DNA of 8,358 nucleotides from Candidatus Jordarchaeales archaeon (GCA_038858525.1 JAWCFL010000016.1:21841-30198), one strand, 5' to 3'. Counted from the stretch's first letter, positions 844-7,879 are shown. The notes: generated by a model from the letters alone, not told the origin. Numbers and translations: made by a program.

Positions 844-2664
844 ATGGGTAAGTTTTTAGATGTTGACCTTACGAAAGGCAAAATCAGCGATTACACGCCT
901 AAAGAGGATATACTGCGCATGTTTCTTGGAGGCAAGGGGCTGGCGTTATCCATCATAATGGAGCACGCTCGAAACCTAGCTAGGAAGGGCGTTAATCTAG
1001 CTGAGCTGGACCCGTTCAGCCCGGACAACGTGCTTGTCTTCGCCACTGGCCCAGCTACCGGGACAGGTTTCCCGTCAAGTGGCAGGTACCACGTTATGGC
1101 ATTGAAGTCCCCTCTTACAGGATCCGTGGCAAGCGCCAACTCTGGGGGTGAGTGGGGTCCATACCTGAAATTTGCAGGGTACGACGGGGTAATAGTTAGA
1201 GGGGCGGCTGAGAAGCCTGTCTACGTCTCCGTAATGGATGGTAAAGCCGAAATTAAGGATGCAGGCCGCCTGTGGGGCATGAATACCTTCGACACTACCA
1301 GCACGCTTAAAGAGGAGCATGGGAAGGATGTTAGCGTCGCCTGTATAGGGCCCGCAGGAGAAAACCTTGTCCGCTTCGCAAACATAATAAACGACGAGCA
1401 CAGGGCGGCGGGAAGAACGGGCGTAGGCGCAGTGATGGGAAGTAAGAAACTAAAAGCAATAGTAGCGGGAGGAAGCCAAAAGGTCACTATAGCAAAGCCT
1501 GAAGATTTCAAGAATGCACAAAAGAATGCGCTGAAAAAAGTTAAGGAGAACAGCATCACGGGGCAAGGTCTCCCGACTTATGGAACAGCGATCCTGGTCA
1601 ACATAATAAACGCCCACGGCATATTCCCAACCAGAAACTTTCAGGCAAGCGTTTTTCCTGATGCGGAGAAGATTAGTGGTGAGACGTTAGCGGAGAAGTA
1701 TCTTACTAAGAGGAGGGCCTGCTGGGGTTGTCCTATTGGTTGTGGCAGGGTGACTAGGGTTCCGAGTGGTCCTTTTGCTGTGGAGTATAGTGAGGGGCCT
1801 GAGTATGAAAGTGTTTGGGCTCTTGGGGCTGACTGTGGTGTTAGTGAGCTTGACGCAATAGTTAAGGCTAACCATTTTTGTGATGAGCTTGGCCTCGACA
1901 CTATCAGTATGGGTGCCACGATCGCCTGCGCCATGGAACTAGTTCAACGGAAGAAGATCAAGCCTGAGAGGCTTCAGGGTTTGAAGCTCGAGTTTGGGAA
2001 TGCTGCAGCAATGGTGGAAGCAGTTTGGAGGACAGCATACAGGGCTGGTATAGGGGCGGACCTAGCTGAAGGCTCAAAGAGACTGGCGGAAAAATATGGA
2101 GCACCAGAATTAAGCATGAGTGCAAAGGGACTAGAACTACCAGCCTACGATCCGCGCGGCGTCCAAGGAATGACGTTGAACTATGCCACAGCTAATCGTG
2201 GAGGGTGTCACGTATCCGGATACGCCATTGCCTCAGAGGTTTTAGCCCCGCAGCCCGTCGACAGGTTTACAACAGAAGGAAAGGCGCAACTGGTCAAGAC
2301 GCTGCAGGACTTCACTTGTGTCGTTAACTCTGCGTGTGTTTGTCTCTTCGTAACCTTTGCTCTAGGTCCACCAGACTTCGCACAGCTACTCTCAGCTATA
2401 ACAGGATGGGACCTAACCGAGAACGAGCTACTAAAAATAGGTGAGCGGGTATACAATATCGAGAGGCAGCTAATGAACATGATTGGCATAGACGGGAAGG
2501 AAGACACTTTGCCTCCTAGACTACTAAAAGAGAAGATACGCGAAGGGCCAGCTAAGGGCCATGTCGCCAAACTTGACGTCATGTTGCCGGAGTACTATGA
2601 GCTGCGAGGCTGGGTGAACGGTGTACCGAAAGAGGATAAGCTGAAAGAGTTAAAGTTGGCCTAG
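844..2664 (+). CDS. aor: Tungsten-containing aldehyde:ferredoxin oxidoreductase (AOR/WOR family), about 606 aa; the true start may be ATT at 829
   Basis: Family motifs KSPLTG, GRTGVGAVMGSKKLKAI, CWGCPIGC (CxxCxxxC 4Fe-4S ligands), EGPEYES, DELGLDTIS, KGLELPAYDPRG and RGGCH, plus a later Cys in SACVCLF as the likely fourth cluster ligand. Length matches single-subunit archaeal AORs. Exact substrate subfamily not determined. Confidence 0.95.
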   Translation: MGKFLDVDLTKGKISDYTPKEDILRMFLGGKGLALSIIMEHARNLARKGVNLAELDPFSPDNVLVFATGPATGTGFPSSGRYHVMALKSPLTGSVASANSGGEWGPYLKFAGYDGVIVRGAAEKPVYVSVMDGKAEIKDAGRLWGMNTFDTTSTLKEEHGKDVSVACIGPAGENLVRFANIINDEHRAAGRTGVGAVMGSKKLKAIVAGGSQKVTIAKPEDFKNAQKNALKKVKENSITGQGLPTYGTAILVNIINAHGIFPTRNFQASVFPDAEKISGETLAEKYLTKRRACWGCPIGCGRVTRVPSGPFAVEYSEGPEYESVWALGADCGVSELDAIVKANHFCDELGLDTISMGATIACAMELVQRKKIKPERLQGLKLEFGNAAAMVEAVWRTAYRAGIGADLAEGSKRLAEKYGAPELSMSAKGLELPAYDPRGVQGMTLNYATANRGGCHVSGYAIASEVLAPQPVDRFTTEGKAQLVKTLQDFTCVVNSACVCLFVTFALGPPDFAQLLSAITGWDLTENELLKIGERVYNIERQLMNMIGIDGKEDTLPPRLLKEKIREGPAKGHVAKLDVMLPEYYELRGWVNGVPKEDKLKELKLA

Positions 2665-2715
2665 AAACCTCTTTATATCCCCACTTTTTTCTGATATCTT
2701 AAAGGGTGTTACATT

Positions 2716-2994
2716 ATGGTTAGAGTTAAAGTGAAGTTTTACGCATCCTTGAGAGATAAATACAAAGTTAAGGAAGTCGAATTAGACTGCAATGGAGGAC
2801 TGGAAAGCTTTATGGACTCCTTAGACTCCAAGGTTAAAGGAGCGAAACGTGACCTTTTCGACAGCGAGAAAAGCTCGGTTAAGGACAACGTGCTTTTCCT
2901 TCTGAACGGGGTTAACGTGAAAACCATGAAAGAACCGATAAAGTTTAAGGATGGAGACCTAGTCTCGATTTTCCCGCCAATAGCCGGTGGATAA
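2716..2994 (+). CDS. moaD: MoaD/ThiS-family ubiquitin-like sulfur carrier (SAMP-like), 92 aa
   Basis: Beta-grasp pattern VKVKFYASLR...LLNGVNV...GDLVSIFPPIAGG ending in the di-glycine. RBS-like AAAGGGTG at 2701-2708. Sits directly after aor, a known context for MoaD/SAMP genes. Confidence 0.9.
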   Translation: MVRVKVKFYASLRDKYKVKEVELDCNGGLESFMDSLDSKVKGAKRDLFDSEKSSVKDNVLFLLNGVNVKTMKEPIKFKDGDLVSIFPPIAGG

Positions 2995-3079
2995 GCATAA
3001 GTGTTAGAAATCTTTTTGGGCCCTAAAGTTGTCAGTACCCATTTTGTTCTTCCGCCTCGTTTCCTCAGCTTCATTTTTT

Positions 3080-3109
3080 GGCTTGCTAAATTTTTAGAAG
3101 CCTTTTATT
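3080..3109 (+). terminator. Possible terminator (imperfect hairpin plus T tract) after aor-moaD
   Basis: GGCTT-G-CTAA-ATTT-TTAG-AAGCC followed by TTTTATT, within a strongly T-rich intergenic stretch that has other oligo-T runs. Confidence 0.4.
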
Positions 3110-3151
3110 CCCATTTCTAGTTACCTCTTTTCAATGTGGGTTGTGGTTTTG

Positions 3152-3159
3152 CTTATATA
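3152..3159 (+). promoter_or_regulatory. Possible TATA box for the rSAM-fmdE unit
   Basis: CTTATATA lies about 26-35 nt upstream of the GTG/TTG starts at 3185-3194. No A-rich BRE is visible, so the call is weak. Confidence 0.4.
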
Positions 3160-3193
3160 CGTGGGATTTGTCTTTGTTGTTCTGGTGGTGTTG

Positions 3194-4477
3194 TTGTCTG
3201 ACGGTTTTCCATCGGCTCTTCAGGTCGAGGTTTCATCTGTCTGCAACTTAGACTGCTTCATGTGCCAAAGGCACTCTTGGGGTCCGAGCGAGGAAGGACT
3301 GATGCCTCTCTCAATTTTCAGGAGGATTGAAGATTCTCTGCGCGAGGCTGAAAGGGTGGCTCTTTACGGTGTCGGGGAACCCTTAATGAATCCCGACATA
3401 GTCGAAATTGTGGCGTTCGCCAGAAGAGCTATGGGCGAGAGTGGAGAAATACTTCTCTCCACGAACGGCACGCTTCTCACTCCGAAGCTCGCCGGAAGGC
3501 TGGTTGAGGCAGGCCTAACCTCACTGTACATGTCCCTTGACAGCTTGAACGAGGAGAAACTGAAAGGTATTCGGAGAGGAATAGATTATGTGAGCGCACT
3601 TGAGAACTTCAAATTTTTCTTGAAGAATTTTGGGTCTGACGTGGAGGCTGGGGTCGAGTATGTCATTATGAAGGAAAACTTGAGTGAGCTTCCTATGTTT
3701 ATTGTTGATGCTGCTGAAATGGGAGTCAGCCACATTTTCACGTCTCACATTGTTCCCTTCTCTGAGGAGGTGGCGAAGCAAGCGGTCTACACGACGATCA
3801 GTGAGGAGGCAATCGAGGCAGGCAAGGAGCTTATCGGGAGGGGGTGGCAGGTTATAGTTGAAGCTTCACGTTTCTTCGTGTCGCTGGGGTATGTTGGAAG
3901 CGTGGTGGAGTCACGTATGGTTGAGCTTCTTAGCGAGGCCTGGCGTAAGGCTGAAGCAGCTGGCGTCGAGTTAAACGTTCCCCAGCTTTTGGGAGGCGAG
4001 GTAGACCTTAACTTGCTGGACGAAGTTAGGGAAACTTTCAGGAGAGCTGAGCGAGTTGCAGGAGAGTATGGCGTGGAGCTAACTCTCCCCCCGGTAACCT
4101 TCAAAGCCAACGCTAGATCTTGCCCTTACGCTGAAAAAGAGGTTGCAACAGTTCGATGGGATGGAATGGTTTCCCCATGCCAGGAATACCTTCACGACCA
4201 CAGTCTTTACGTGAACAAGCACAGTAAAAGATTCAAGGCGCACTTCTTTGGAGACGTAAAGGAGCGTAGCCTAAAAGAAATATGGAGGAGCAGGGATTAC
4301 GCCGAGTTCAGGGAAAAAATAGGGACATTGCCGAAGACGGTTCCATGGTGCGGGAACTGCCCCTACTCTACGCTGAAGTGCTGGTTCGTCGACAGCAACC
4401 AGGTTGACTGCTACGGGAATTCTCCAAGTTGCAGCGAGTGCATATACAGCACCGGCATGGCCAAGTGCAACATATAA
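3194..4477 (+). CDS. Radical SAM/SPASM-domain protein, probable tungsten-cofactor oxidoreductase maturase (TIGR04317/Cmo-like, from recollection)
   Basis: CNLDCFMC (CxxxCxxC, 3242-3265), GVGEPLMNP (GGE motif) and STNGTLL. The C-terminus is Cys-rich: CPY...PC...CGNCPYSTLKC...NQVDCYGNSPSCSECIYSTGMAKC. aor is adjacent. I placed the start at TTG 3194 behind GGTGGTG (3184-3190); in-frame GTG 3185/3188, TTG 3191 and the track's ATG 3134 are alternatives. Confidence 0.85.
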   Translation: MSDGFPSALQVEVSSVCNLDCFMCQRHSWGPSEEGLMPLSIFRRIEDSLREAERVALYGVGEPLMNPDIVEIVAFARRAMGESGEILLSTNGTLLTPKLAGRLVEAGLTSLYMSLDSLNEEKLKGIRRGIDYVSALENFKFFLKNFGSDVEAGVEYVIMKENLSELPMFIVDAAEMGVSHIFTSHIVPFSEEVAKQAVYTTISEEAIEAGKELIGRGWQVIVEASRFFVSLGYVGSVVESRMVELLSEAWRKAEAAGVELNVPQLLGGEVDLNLLDEVRETFRRAERVAGEYGVELTLPPVTFKANARSCPYAEKEVATVRWDGMVSPCQEYLHDHSLYVNKHSKRFKAHFFGDVKERSLKEIWRSRDYAEFREKIGTLPKTVPWCGNCPYSTLKCWFVDSNQVDCYGNSPSCSECIYSTGMAKCNI

Positions 4478-4502
4478 AAAGAAGCCGTTAGGTGGAAGGT
4501 TT

Positions 4503-4943
4503 ATGGATGCTGAAGAGCTTTTGGGTTTCGCTGTTAAATTTCACGGTCATCTTGGCCCCTTCCTTGTTTTAGGGTTACGTGCAGGTTTAATTGCTAGAAA
4601 ACTGATAGGTGTGCCCTCAAGTGTAGAGGTCCGCGTTTTCCCTAGGCCACCATTAAGCTGTGTGATAGACGGAGTTCAAGTCTCTTCTGGTTGTACCGTT
4701 GGTAATGGGAAGCTACTTGTGAAGTCCACTCGTGATAGGCTTAAAGTAAAATTGGTTTTCCGCTCGGAGGAAGGTGTTGTAGACATCTCCTTGTTAAGGG
4801 GGCTTATTGAAAGCCTTCTTTCGAAAATGCCTGCGAGCGAGGAGGAGATGGAAAAAGACGCTATGAATCTCCTGGGCGAGGATGAACAGCGTCTATTCAT
4901 CATCAAGAGAGGCGAGTCCAAGAAATTTCTGCTTAGGAGGTGA
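4503..4943 (+). CDS. FmdE-family (formylmethanofuran dehydrogenase subunit E domain) stand-alone protein, 146 aa
   Basis: FHGHLGPFLVLG and SCVIDGVQVSSGCTVGNG match the FmdE signature (HGH...C-x-x-D-x-x-Q-x-x-x-GCT-x-G-x-G). ATG 4503 has RBS GGTGGAAGG (4491-4499) and lies 25 bp after the rSAM stop. The track's extension to 4404 overlaps the rSAM gene. Confidence 0.85.
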   Translation: MDAEELLGFAVKFHGHLGPFLVLGLRAGLIARKLIGVPSSVEVRVFPRPPLSCVIDGVQVSSGCTVGNGKLLVKSTRDRLKVKLVFRSEEGVVDISLLRGLIESLLSKMPASEEEMEKDAMNLLGEDEQRLFIIKRGESKKFLLRR

Positions 4944-7188
4944 GAGTCCACCAGTTAACTAGAAGCGTTATGAGGGGCTCCGGGGCTAGGGGACTGATAG
5001 CCAGGTACACGTGGTAAACTCCCGCTCCAATAAGAATGGCTGAGATTATCGTTGTCAAGCTCACCAGTAGCGCCGTTTTCAGGTTGAACTCTCTGGCTAT
5101 GACTGCGAAGGTTGCAACGCAGGGGAAGTATAGCGCCACCACGAGGGCATAGATGAAGATTTGCATGGGCGTCATGAAGAGTGAAAGTTCGCTCACTCCT
5201 AATTTAAGATTCGAGATAACTAAAAGCGTTTCAATGGCCATTTCTTTTCGGAGAAGCCCATACATCAATGTGACACTTGTGATCGACGGGAGGCCGAGGA
5301 CATCGCTCATGAAGCCGGCTGAAGCATATAAGACTGGCGTCACCAAGTTGAACGCTTCAAGGAGCGCTAACAATAAGCTGCCAGCCACTATAAATGGGAG
5401 AGCCACCTTAAAGAACTCCCGCGTTCTGATCCACGTCTTGGAAAACAACGACGACCACGTTGGCACCCTGTACGGTGGCATCTCCATGAGCATGCTTGGA
5501 GACTCTCCGGGGATCACCTTGCTCAGCACTATTGAAAGCAGGGCGACTAGCCCAATGATAACAAAGTATATCGCCAGCGCGTATTGGAGGCCACCGTAGT
5601 ATCCTGCCGCTCCCAGTATAACCGCTGTCCTCGCGGAGCATGGGAGAAGCGTTATCAGGAAAGTGACGATCACCCTCTGCTTCCTGCTTTCAAGTATCCT
5701 CGTCGACATTATGGCTGGAACGTTGCAGCCTAGAGCCGACACCAAGGGTATTATCGATTTTCCGTGAAGCCCAAACTTGTGGAGGACTAAATCAGTCAAG
5801 TATGCTATGCGCGACAGGTAGCCCGTATCCTCCAGTAGTGCTAGGGCAAGGTAAAATGTGACCACGTATGGCAACGCCACCGATAAAGCTGCCTCAATAC
5901 CCGTCAACAGCCCGTCGACGACAAAATACTTTGCAAGCGTCTGGATGGGGAAAAACTGGCCTGCCATGAGTTCAACGACCCGCGCAACGATATCACCATA
6001 GAATTGTGAAGCAGAGCTACTAACTGCTTTCATGACTAGTTCCACCCACGTGTAGCCGATAAGCCACTCTACAAGAGGTGTCACGTAGCTTTCAAAGAAG
6101 CCTGCGATCCCCCTCTCGAGAACTCCTCCACCGAGAAACACTAGGGCGAACATTCCCATCAATATTAGGACGAGAATCGGGAAACCTGTTTGATAGGAGA
6201 GGAGAAAGTTGTCCAGTTTCTCCTGTAGCGTTGCCTTAGTTCTCTCTCTACGCATAACCTGTCGAGTTATCCAGCCAGCTAGGGCGAACCGCTCTTTCGC
6301 CATGACCACCGATGAGTTCTCGCCGAGCGTCCACTCCAGCTCGCGCCTAACTGCGTCTATCTCGGCGGCGAGCCAGCCGGGCAAGCTCCCCCCAATCGCC
6401 GCCTCAACCGCTTTAGCGTCTCCTTCCAAGGCCCACTCTGCCAAGATCCTCGGAGTAACCACGCTGCCTACAAGGTACCCTGCGAATGCGCGCTCCAATT
6501 TTCGAACGCGGCTTTCGACTAGAGAGGAATACTCCACTCTTCTTCGGTGACCGAGCCTCGGAAGAATAGCAATCTCCCTTCCTAGTTGCCCATGCCTGAA
6601 TCTTCTCCTCCTACCGTATCCGCTCTCAACGGTATGCCCTGCTTCTCCTCCTCTTCTTGCTTCCAGCGTCGATTTGATAGCGACTTCTAGGACTTCTCTG
6701 ACGTTTATCCCCTTGGTTGCCACGGTGGGTATAACGGGGATCCCTAGAAGCTCTGATAACGCTTCATGATTCACGTTGAGCCCCCTCTTTTTGGCGAAGT
6801 CCACCTGATTAAGAGCCATCACGATCGGCACATTCAACTCTAGGAGCTGAATGGTAAGGGCGAGGCTTTGCTCTAGCCTGCTCGCATCGGCCACGTTCAC
6901 TATGACGTCTGGTTTCTCCTTTATGATAGCCCTCACGGTCACTTCTTGATCCTCTGAGAGACAACCTAGGCTGTATGTTCCTGGAAGGTCCGTCACCTCA
7001 ACCTTAGTCCCGTTGAGGCTGGCCAGCCCTCTAGTAACCTCAACAGTGGTTCCAGGGTAATTCGACACTATAGCGTTAACTCCCGTGAGCCTATTGAAGA
7101 AGACGCTCTTACCGACATTCGGCACTCCCACAAGGAAAACCTTTAAGGCACGGCCTCCAAGCGTCGCTTCTCTATCCATTTCACTCAC
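4933..7188 (-). CDS. feoB: Ferrous iron transport protein B
   Basis: G1 GVPNVGKS, G2 NYPGTTV, G3 DLPGTYSL, G4 NQVD. The membrane domain has LEDTGYLSR, GCNVPAIM, LPCSAR, MEMPPYRVP and LYFPCVAT. Start is GTG 7188, or ATG 7179 which has GGTGA 5 nt upstream; it is coupled to the regulator stop at 7181-7183. Confidence 0.96.
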   Translation of the reverse strand: MSEMDREATLGGRALKVFLVGVPNVGKSVFFNRLTGVNAIVSNYPGTTVEVTRGLASLNGTKVEVTDLPGTYSLGCLSEDQEVTVRAIIKEKPDVIVNVADASRLEQSLALTIQLLELNVPIVMALNQVDFAKKRGLNVNHEALSELLGIPVIPTVATKGINVREVLEVAIKSTLEARRGGEAGHTVESGYGRRRRFRHGQLGREIAILPRLGHRRRVEYSSLVESRVRKLERAFAGYLVGSVVTPRILAEWALEGDAKAVEAAIGGSLPGWLAAEIDAVRRELEWTLGENSSVVMAKERFALAGWITRQVMRRERTKATLQEKLDNFLLSYQTGFPILVLILMGMFALVFLGGGVLERGIAGFFESYVTPLVEWLIGYTWVELVMKAVSSSASQFYGDIVARVVELMAGQFFPIQTLAKYFVVDGLLTGIEAALSVALPYVVTFYLALALLEDTGYLSRIAYLTDLVLHKFGLHGKSIIPLVSALGCNVPAIMSTRILESRKQRVIVTFLITLLPCSARTAVILGAAGYYGGLQYALAIYFVIIGLVALLSIVLSKVIPGESPSMLMEMPPYRVPTWSSLFSKTWIRTREFFKVALPFIVAGSLLLALLEAFNLVTPVLYASAGFMSDVLGLPSITSVTLMYGLLRKEMAIETLLVISNLKLGVSELSLFMTPMQIFIYALVVALYFPCVATFAVIAREFNLKTALLVSLTTIISAILIGAGVYHVYLAISPLAPEPLITLLVNWWTLTS

Positions 7189-7867
7189 CGTCTACTGGGA
7201 CCGCCATGATGACCTCGGCAAGCTCCCGTCCCATGGCCACTTGGAGACAGCCGGAGTCAACTATGACTGGGCCACCTGCAGGCGCCCTCCTGATCAGCTT
7301 GAGCTCAACCCCTGGCATTATACCTAAGGAAGCCAGCCTTCTCAGCACGTCGCGCTTCTCCTTAATTATTCTCACAACCCTAACCTTCAATGGAGGGTTG
7401 AAGCTGATGAGAGGTCGACCCACCTCGCCCTTTATTTCTCCTGTTGGGGGAGGAATAATGTTGCCGTGAGGGCAAGTCTCGGGGTTTTTAAGGGATGCCG
7501 CCAGCTTGTCTGCTACTTCGTCGCTTAGAGCATGCTCCAACTTACATGCTTCCTCATGACATTCATCCCAATTAACTCCCGCAACGTCCGTGAGCAAGCG
7601 TTCAGCTATCCTATGCCTCCTTACAACCCTCGCGGCGACCTCACGCCCCAAGGAAGTCAGACTAGCCCCCCTGTAGGGAACATACTCCACCAGGTTCTTC
7701 TTTGTAAGCGAGTCCTTCAACATCTCTGTCACTGACGCTGGGGAAACACCCAGCCTCTCAGCTAGCTCACTCGTCTTCACGCTGGCTTTGCCTTCCTCAT
7801 ACATATGATAAAGCGCCTCTATGTATTCTTCCTCCGACTCTGAGAGTTCATCTTGCTCCGGCGTCAT
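7181..7867 (-). CDS. DtxR/MntR-family metal-dependent transcriptional repressor with C-terminal FeoA (SH3-like) domain
   Basis: EEEYIEALY; winged HTH ELAERLGVSPASVTEMLK; RRHRIAERLL; HEEACKLEH; CPHGN; FeoA-like tail RRLASLGIMPGVELKLIRRAPAGGPV. ATG 7867 is preceded by GGATGTGAG; TTG 7879 and GTG 7873 are in-frame alternatives. Confidence 0.93.
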   Translation of the reverse strand: MTPEQDELSESEEEYIEALYHMYEEGKASVKTSELAERLGVSPASVTEMLKDSLTKKNLVEYVPYRGASLTSLGREVAARVVRRHRIAERLLTDVAGVNWDECHEEACKLEHALSDEVADKLAASLKNPETCPHGNIIPPPTGEIKGEVGRPLISFNPPLKVRVVRIIKEKRDVLRRLASLGIMPGVELKLIRRAPAGGPVIVDSGCLQVAMGRELAEVIMAVPVDGE

Positions 7868-7879
7868 GCTCACATCCAA

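Follow-up and report, generated by a model that had tools for sequence, protein, structure and literature searches.

The window, a stretch of 8,358 nucleotides from a Candidatus Jordarchaeales archaeon (GCA_038858525.1 JAWCFL010000016.1:21841-30198), probably carries the Jordarchaeum (Asgard archaeon) copy of a known cassette composed of aor, a moaD-like gene, and a radical SAM-SPASM ("Cmo"-type) gene. The gene downstream encodes an FmdE protein of the core-only "HGHLGP" type, a widespread subfamily of small metal-binding proteins. In the reading that we favor, it has adjoined the radical SAM (rSAM) gene only since the Jordarchaeaceae ancestor, and it would serve general metal handling rather than a dedicated tungsten-cofactor step.

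As stated in the initial annotation, four co-oriented genes occupy positions 844 to 4943 of the + strand, in the order AOR, MoaD-like, radical SAM/SPASM, and FmdE, and all four were recovered by domain searches (Table 1). The gap between the rSAM gene and fmdE, given there as 25 bp, measured exactly 25 nt, and profile searches across the whole window found no other fmd/fwd gene and no moaE, moeA, or ferredoxin gene, again in agreement with that annotation. Besides these four genes, the window contains feoB, a gene for a DtxR/MntR-FeoA regulator, and a fragment of an M20 peptidase gene.

Table 1. Features of the aor locus and its downstream flank, in window coordinates
Feature	Position	Strand	Basis
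aor, AOR sensu stricto, tungsten-type aldehyde:ferredoxin oxidoreductase, 606 aa	844..2664	+	AFOR_N + AFOR_C, 1aor match
MoaD/SAMP-like ubiquitin-like sulfur carrier, 92 aa, C-terminal GG	2716..2994	+	TIGR01687, PF02597
Spacer between the moaD-like gene and the rSAM gene, T5-T6 runs and TTTTATT box; probably archaeal terminator plus promoter	2995..3190	+	Sequence reading
Radical SAM/SPASM enzyme, AOR-linked "Cmo" type; real start probably near 3185-3194	3134..4477	+	PF04055, PF13186
Core-only FmdE-family protein (PF02663), "HGHLGP" subfamily, 146 aa counted from ATG	4503..4943	+	PF02663, AlphaFold2 model
feoB, flanking context, outside the module	4933..7188	-	TIGR00437, 435 bits

The AOR and its MoaD-like neighbor

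The aor product matched AFOR_N (PF02730; 256 bits, E 3e-76) and AFOR_C (PF01314; 503 bits, E 6e-151) end to end and scored 627 bits against the P. furiosus AOR, 1aor. Its [4Fe-4S] ligand motif CxxCxxxC reads CWGCPIGC at residues 293 to 300, with further cysteines at positions 492, 498, and 500, and the pterin motif DxxGL(C/D) reads DELGLD at approximately residue 350. The protein is predicted from its sequence to be a tungsten bis-pyranopterin, [4Fe-4S] enzyme. Of the eight AOR-family paralogues that the genome encodes, only the copy in the window adjoins MoaD-like and rSAM genes.

The MoaD-like protein scored above the cutoffs of TIGR01687 (56.6 bits versus 49.5) and PF02597 (33.4 bits versus 22.5), and it ends in PPIAGG. 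Proteins of the MoaD family are thiocarboxylated and donate sulfur for the pterin dithiolene, a role that is established for the family. By analogy with its family, the GG-ended ubiquitin-like protein of the window would be thiocarboxylated and pass sulfur to the pterin dithiolene. A MoaE gene is present elsewhere in the genome, on contig C2 (93.8 bits).

The rSAM enzyme is AOR linked and falls below both maturase cutoffs

The rSAM enzyme harbors the domains PF04055 and PF13186, a cluster motif CX3CX2C at C37, C41, and C44, and nine conserved cysteines toward its C terminus. Against TIGR04311 (radical SAM/SPASM putative metalloenzyme maturase) it scored 315 bits, below the cutoff of 400, while covering profile positions 1 to 422 of 423. 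Against TIGR04317 (tungsten cofactor oxidoreductase radical SAM maturase) it scored 254 bits, below the cutoff of 380, and the match was split into two stretches separated by an insert of approximately 90 residues; no copy anywhere in the genome reached this cutoff. Of the profiles that the initial annotation had suggested for a search, PF02663, AFOR_N/AFOR_C, and the MoaD signature were matched above cutoff, but TIGR04317 was not. Formally, the enzyme is a member of neither TIGR04311 nor TIGR04317 and, judged by its sequence, it is a separate Asgard/Bathyarchaeia branch. Its nearest relatives outside the family share only 36 to 40% identity.

As for the TIGR04311 and TIGR04317 families, AOR is the genomic partner of the rSAM enzyme in the window. 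With its CX3CX2C core, its Cys-rich SPASM end, and its AOR neighbor, the enzyme is of the AOR-linked Cmo type as we define it here. P. furiosus aor/cmo was reportedly described by Kletzin et al. in 1995. A literature search found no characterized Cmo/TIGR04317 enzyme, in good agreement with the earlier statement that the chemistry of AOR-linked rSAM enzymes is not established. We regard the radical SAM/SPASM enzyme as a putative conserved helper linked to AOR.

The rSAM reading frame probably starts at a GTG or TTG around positions 3185 to 3194 rather than at 3134, because the first 20 or so hydrophobic codons are unconserved in relatives, whose gene calls begin there. We rejected the possibility that this hydrophobic N terminus is a membrane anchor; it most likely reflects an overextended open reading frame.

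Conservation of the AOR-MoaD-rSAM trio

In a census of 301 Asgard genomes, the rSAM enzyme was present in 34; 30 loci were retrieved for analysis of rSAM neighborhoods, and at 29 of them AOR adjoined the rSAM gene. The full AOR-MoaD-rSAM trio, devoid of FmdE, occurs at three Bathyarchaeia loci and in another Asgard family, and T. kodakarensis tk1066-tk1065-tk1064 is a published module made of AOR, a MoaD-like protein, and a radical SAM enzyme (PMC11323500). The claim that these three genes form a real conserved unit is therefore well founded. Its core is the AOR-rSAM pair, conserved at almost all of the sampled Asgard loci, whereas the presence of MoaD varies and FmdE is restricted to a single family. 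In one congeneric genome (G002), only a deletion remnant of the rSAM gene is left and AOR, MoaD, and FmdE are intact, and this natural loss hints that one close relative, at least, can do without the rSAM enzyme.

The window shares with the Thermococcales aor-ublC-radical SAM cluster the three gene families, their order, and their orientation, its MoaD-like gene holding the position of T. kodakarensis UblC/TK1065 (PMC11323500). The likeness extends to an AOR sensu stricto, a ubiquitin-like protein with a GG end, and an rSAM enzyme with CX3CX2C and a Cys-rich SPASM end. However, the window rSAM enzyme scores below the TIGR04317 cutoff, an FmdE gene lies 3' of the rSAM gene, and the moaD-rSAM spacer spans approximately 140 to 200 bp and contains T-runs, whereas tk1065-tk1064 is reported as one operon (PMC11323500). 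As read from the sequence, this spacer, which is poorly conserved among relatives, harbors several T5-T6 runs and a TTTTATT box and probably represents an archaeal terminator plus promoter. Aor-moaD and rSAM-fmdE may form two separate transcription units, a reading that, like that of the spacer, rests on T-runs, a TATA-like box, and a Shine-Dalgarno (SD)-like motif.

FmdE is a core-only protein with a predicted three-ligand metal site

The FmdE protein scored 60.6 bits against PF02663 (cutoff, 22.9), and its AlphaFold2 model (pLDDT, 92) gave 2glz (TM 0.72, the best), 2gvi, and 3d00 as top fold matches. Its alpha+beta core fold is that of the core-only FmdE proteins, represented by D. hafniense Dhaf_2992 (2glz) and, in T. 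acidophilum Ta1109, by the N-terminal domain (2gvi) (PMC2954224). With both it shares the HGH motif, the Asp/Gln/Thr motif of the dimer interface, and the cysteine of the second motif, and like 2glz it has no C-terminal zinc finger. Residues H14, H16, C53, D56, Q59, C64, and T65 are invariant in the subfamily.

In 2glz and 2gvi, the metal ligands are the His, His, and Cys of FHGHxC and the Cys of the second motif (PMC2954224). The window protein keeps three of these four canonical ligands (His14, His16, and Cys53), but the Cys of HxC is replaced by Gly18, which is invariant in the subfamily. The four-ligand set is not an absolute requirement in the FmdE family, since the 3d00 protein also lacks two ligands (PMC2954224). 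The predicted metal site is of the His2-Cys type and leaves one of the four ligand positions vacant.

The only fused forms of FmdE were two 319-aa Bathyarchaeia proteins, one of which is ThiN (PF10120) fused to FmdE, and no molybdopterin-binding domain was found in them. A phylogeny of FmdE places the five Jordarchaeaceae proteins in a single clade (support, 0.985). Since the support for the sister group is only 0.09, the tree is silent on whether FmdE was inherited vertically or acquired. Rather than carrying out a dedicated step in tungsten-cofactor synthesis, FmdE most likely handles or buffers transition metals in general.

FmdE adjoins the rSAM gene only in Jordarchaeaceae

FmdE was found beside rSAM/aor only in Jordarchaeaceae, in two genera, with intact loci in G000, G001, G003, and G004 and a locus with the rSAM gene deleted in G002. 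None of the remaining 26 Asgard rSAM loci had it, nor did any of the three Bathyarchaeia AOR-MoaD-rSAM trios. Seen from the side of FmdE, none of the 77 other subfamily loci had AOR, MoaD, or rSAM within 7 kb, and the rSAM enzyme is absent from 46 of the 50 genomes carrying the FmdE subfamily of the window. The initial annotation had presented FmdE as part of an AOR maturation unit and had itself named a restriction to this lineage as evidence against that proposal; the proposal fails because FmdE adjoins rSAM/aor in the Jordarchaeaceae lineage only. It had also asked whether stand-alone FmdE co-occurs with rSAM and aor in genomes lacking fwd/fmd, a setting to which this genome does not belong. 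The FmdE gene of the window is not inside an fmd/fwd operon; however, the genome encodes FwdA (836 bits) and two copies of FwdB (639 and 510 bits), with fwdA/fwdB on contigs C36, C11, and C4, as well as MoaE and, on another contig, a further FmdE that is canonical and has a zinc finger.

Outside Jordarchaeaceae, the genes that recur beside those of the subfamily encode an ECF-S-like membrane protein (20 loci), NikR (13), DUF1893 (11), NadA (9), thioredoxin (8), and DUF2148 (7), and sometimes metal transporters, including ZnuA and ABC-3. Single-query tblastn detected no homologues of the ECF-S-like protein, DUF1893, or DUF2148 in Jordarchaeum. Without its usual partners, FmdE may have another partner in this organism. 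The 25-nt spacer in front of fmdE contains an SD-like motif (GGTGGA/AGGTGG) before the ATG and no T-run, and across the two genera the rSAM-fmdE spacers measure 25, 33, 56, and approximately 70 bp. The FmdE proteins of the two genera are only 52% identical, yet the short spacer is kept and the gene downstream of fmdE differs, which is compatible with a lineage-specific recruitment. In our preferred reading, FmdE became a neighbor of the rSAM gene only in the Jordarchaeaceae ancestor, and in this family the two are probably cotranscribed.

These observations speak for a functional role of FmdE in AOR maturation, for which the Jordarchaeaceae ancestor would have recruited it as a metal or cofactor chaperone or as a partner of the rSAM enzyme. 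The same holds for the presence of FmdE genes in certain operons of the fmd type, whose products are Mo/W-pterin enzymes (PMC2954224). We nevertheless consider such a role unlikely. The link is confined to one family, as the Asgard and Bathyarchaeia counts above show, and G002 has lost the rSAM gene but retained FmdE, AOR, and MoaD. Moreover, synteny is weak evidence at such a distance, because the M20 peptidase gene upstream, presumably unrelated, is kept in the same block across relatives. Regarding G002, a co-decay of FmdE with the rSAM gene was rejected, since translation identified the TGA within the match as the earlier stop of an intact 138-aa protein. We are similarly doubtful that the Jordarchaeaceae "HGHLGP" FmdE was taken from its usual context (membrane transporter, NikR, and DUF1893) and recruited as a cotranscribed accessory of the Cmo-type rSAM enzyme, chaperoning metal or Fe-S clusters for either AOR or this three-cluster rSAM enzyme.

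The FmdE gene of the window also differs from those of the core-only proteins in having an rSAM gene as neighbor instead of a transporter gene or an fmd operon; among PF02663 genes, most adjoin genes for metal-ion transporters and only 13 of 208 adjoin fmd (PMC2954224). This transporter context agrees with general metal handling and would also fit a protein working with feoB and the DtxR/MntR-FeoA regulator in iron or divalent-metal handling, its place behind the rSAM gene being incidental. In genus g1, feoB is convergent with fmdE and the two genes overlap by 11 bp. In one Baldrarchaeota genome, the Asgard genome G014, and three genomes of Bipolaricaulota, FeoB and/or DtxR are encoded within approximately 4 kb of a gene of the FmdE subfamily; the ZnuA, ABC-3, and NikR neighbors point in the same direction. 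However, a link to iron uptake seems improbable, even more so than a role in maturation, since convergent genes share no transcript, fmdE of the second genus (G004) still lies 3' of the rSAM gene at a locus from which feoB and dtxR are absent, and FeoB is near only about 5 of the 77 other subfamily loci, three of them from related genomes.

Implications

We thus retain general metal handling as the preferred reading for FmdE and consider the finding ordinary overall. The AOR/MoaD-like/radical SAM trio has long been known, and one more Asgard copy adds little alone. The residual chance of a lineage-specific recruitment of FmdE is small; if true, this recruitment would provide the first functional handle both on an FmdE-family protein and on the AOR-linked radical SAM enzyme. 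The conserved context that the subfamily has in other genomes, with ECF-type membrane protein, NikR, DUF1893, thioredoxin, and DUF2148, is probably the better place to study the role of this FmdE subfamily.

Gene content of the window

The gene order of the window is given in the table. The spacers measure 51 nt between aor and the moaD-like gene, 139 nt between the latter and the radical SAM/SPASM gene (rSAM), and 25 nt between rSAM and fmdE, and the initial annotation had described these four genes accurately. The 3' ends of the convergent fmdE and feoB genes share 11 bp. At its start, feoB overlaps over 8 bp with the gene of a DtxR/MntR-type repressor whose C-terminal domain is FeoA. In the genus of the window, these two iron-uptake genes have remained beside fmdE; in the sister genus, they have not.

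Features of the window, from an ORF listing and profile searches
Feature	Position	Strand
M20 peptidase fragment	3-749	+
aor	844-2664	+
moaD-like gene	2716-2994	+
radical SAM/SPASM gene	3134-4477	+
FmdE-family gene	4503-4943 (counted from ATG)	+
feoB	4933-7188	-
DtxR/MntR-FeoA regulator gene	7181-7879	-

By its sequence, the aor product is an AOR sensu stricto: it matched the P. furiosus enzyme (1aor) with 627 bits and carries the CxxCxxxC cluster motif and the DELGLD pterin motif. The MoaD-like protein (Ubl) scored above the TIGR01687 cut-off and ends in GG. In rSAM, we found C37/C41/C44 and nine conserved C-terminal cysteines; TIGR04311 matched it end to end with 315 bits, under the curated cut-off of 400, and TIGR04317 in two pieces with 254 bits, under the curated cut-off of 380. 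The annotated ATG of rSAM (window 3134-3194) adds about 20 very hydrophobic residues. Because these are conserved neither in same-genus nor in sister-genus genes, and because the gene calls of relatives begin about 20 residues downstream, translation probably begins at a GTG/TTG at about 3185-3194. A membrane anchor at the unconserved rSAM N terminus was also considered and is likely an artefact of the annotated start.

In the moaD-rSAM spacer, T5-T6 runs occur several times, and a TTTTATT box precedes the ATG at 3134 by about 25 to 30 nt. T-runs are absent from the rSAM-fmdE spacer, which contains an SD-like GGTGGA. Based on these features, we infer that aor-moaD and rSAM-fmdE may form two units, with fmdE cotranscribed with rSAM.

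The AOR-MoaD-rSAM trio is a known module

The trio has been described for T. kodakarensis (tk1066-tk1065-tk1064), and mutants in ubl are reported to have lowered AOR and FOR activity (PMC11323500). A homolog of the window rSAM (E <= 1e-40) was found in 34 of 301 Asgard genomes. The AOR gene lay directly beside rSAM in 29 of the 30 Asgard loci examined, the remaining locus beginning at a contig end, and a MoaD-like gene was present in only some of the 30. Tightly packed AOR-MoaD-rSAM genes in the same order also occur in three Bathyarchaeia genomes. The rSAM loci of this census, which also served the search for FmdE, came from Asgard genomes and from those with the FmdE subfamily described below, with flanks of 1.5 kb; Thermococcales and bacterial Cmo-type loci were not among them. 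Treating AOR, the MoaD-like protein, and rSAM as a unit was right, though this unit is already known. The 2.09-Mb assembly encodes eight AOR-family proteins, of which only the window copy has MoaD-like and rSAM neighbors, a single rSAM of this type, four ThiS/MoaD-family proteins, and MoaE.

FmdE has a predicted metal site and is not the only FmdE of the genome

The 146-aa FmdE belongs to a core-only "HGHLGP" subfamily (PF02663), in whose alignment H14-G-H16-L-G18-P19, C53, D56, Q59, C64, and T65 are invariant. The Zn/Ni site seen in crystals of 2glz and 2gvi is built from His, His, and Cys of FHGHxC together with a second-motif Cys (PMC2954224). Profile alignment to these chains placed a Gly at the HxC Cys of the window FmdE and retained the three other ligands. 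The AlphaFold2 model was confident (pLDDT 92), its closest structural matches being 2glz (TM 0.72), then 2gvi and 3d00. Because three ligands are kept and the fold matches these structures, the window protein is, judged from alignment and model, a core-only FmdE-family protein with a predicted three-ligand metal centre in which one site is open.

The initial annotation had called FmdE stand-alone and had seen no other fmd/fwd subunit gene in the window. Elsewhere in the genome, we found FwdA and two FwdB homologs above NCBIfam cut-offs (C36:4066-5730, C11:23506-26829, and C4:28531-29802), probably representing one or two formylmethanofuran dehydrogenase sets, and another FmdE, which is canonical and ends in a DksA/TraR-type zinc finger (contig C58, L001:1462-3078). 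The window FmdE is therefore neither the genome's single FmdE nor part of a genome devoid of fwd. Neither FmdE gene adjoins fwdA/fwdB. The canonical one comes after an isocitrate-dehydrogenase-family gene and overlaps the start of a nucleotidyltransferase/HEPN (NTase/HEPN) gene pair.

Adjacency of FmdE to the trio is confined to one lineage

Adjacent rSAM and fmdE genes were found in four genomes of one family with two genera, the Jordarchaeaceae: the window's own (G000), G003, G001, and, in the sister genus, G004, whose FmdE is down to 52% identity with the window protein. In these genomes, the M20-AOR-MoaD-rSAM-FmdE block is wholly syntenic; since it includes a presumably unrelated M20 peptidase gene, synteny at such distance is weak evidence of function. 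For the aor ortholog of G001 (L052:10322-12116), the match was split into two segments that overlap, one of 66% over residues 1-295 and one of 85% over residues 191-595. This points to a frameshift, to internal duplication, or to misassembly of this MAG.

A subfamily HMM search found no FmdE in 26 of 26 Asgard rSAM loci outside the Jordarchaeaceae, and tblastn found none in the Bathyarchaeia trios. Conversely, among the best 80 of at least 576 confirmed FmdE-subfamily relatives in GTDB species representatives, only three Jordarchaeaceae loci had AOR, MoaD, or rSAM within 7 kb. Forty-six of 50 genomes with this subfamily lacked an rSAM homolog at E <= 1e-30. The other four encode rSAM at a separate place, away from FmdE: in three it belongs to an AOR-MoaD-rSAM trio whose examined flanks contain no FmdE gene, and in the fourth it lies at a contig end. 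The initial annotation had proposed FmdE as a candidate component of a tungsten-cofactor module and had named, among the outcomes that would refute this, an adjacency to rSAM/aor restricted to this lineage; because this is the distribution found, we do not retain that assignment.

G002, a congeneric genome (95% complete, 8 contigs), has naturally lost rSAM. About 258 bp replace the stretch equal to window 3002-3998, that is, the spacer and the first two-thirds of the gene, including CX3CX2C, and the 3' third is a degraded remnant (pseudogene, L051:8503-9272). No further rSAM copy was found in this genome. AOR (607 aa) and MoaD are intact, as is FmdE, which has 138 aa and all invariant residues; FmdE and AOR are therefore both kept without rSAM, although this is one genome and may contain an undetected substitute.

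FmdE could have been recruited in the Jordarchaeaceae as an accessory of rSAM or AOR. In G004, the gene downstream of fmdE is a phosphodiesterase/HD gene rather than feoB, so that fmdE stays with rSAM and not with feoB. However, the restriction of the adjacency to one lineage and the retention of FmdE without rSAM in G002 make recruitment unlikely. It is quite improbable that FmdE functions with the iron-uptake genes next to it (feoB and DtxR/MntR-FeoA), this pair not being beside fmdE in the sister genus.

The FmdE subfamily has a recurring neighborhood of its own

Neighbors were counted in the best 80 of at least 576 loci, minus the three Jordarchaeaceae loci. Just upstream on the same strand, 20 loci had a multi-pass, ECF-S-like membrane protein, five reaching Pfam ECF_trnsprt. 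NikR (13 loci) and NadA (9) were often nearby, and DUF1893/TM1506 (11), thioredoxin (8), and DUF2148 (7) lay downstream; ZnuA, ABC-3, and FeoB were occasional neighbors. This fits the statement that metal-ion transporter genes adjoin most PF02663 genes, while fmd genes adjoin only 13 of 208 (PMC2954224). The recurring neighborhood is seen, for example, at L134:5906-9121, L137:1429-4309, L091:7001-7877, and about 20 more loci, mostly in Bathyarchaeia. Of these usual partners, single-query tblastn found no homolog of the ECF-S-like protein, DUF1893, or DUF2148 in the window's genome. The only fused forms found were P0151 and P0152, 319-aa Bathyarchaeia proteins with the subfamily domain; in P0151, its fusion partner is a thiamine-phosphate synthase domain of the ThiN type (PF10120).

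Overall, the part of the interpretation that concerns the trio is right, yet not new. We consider it fairly probable that the locus combines this known cassette with a general metal-handling FmdE, which would have become the neighbor of the cassette in the Jordarchaeaceae.
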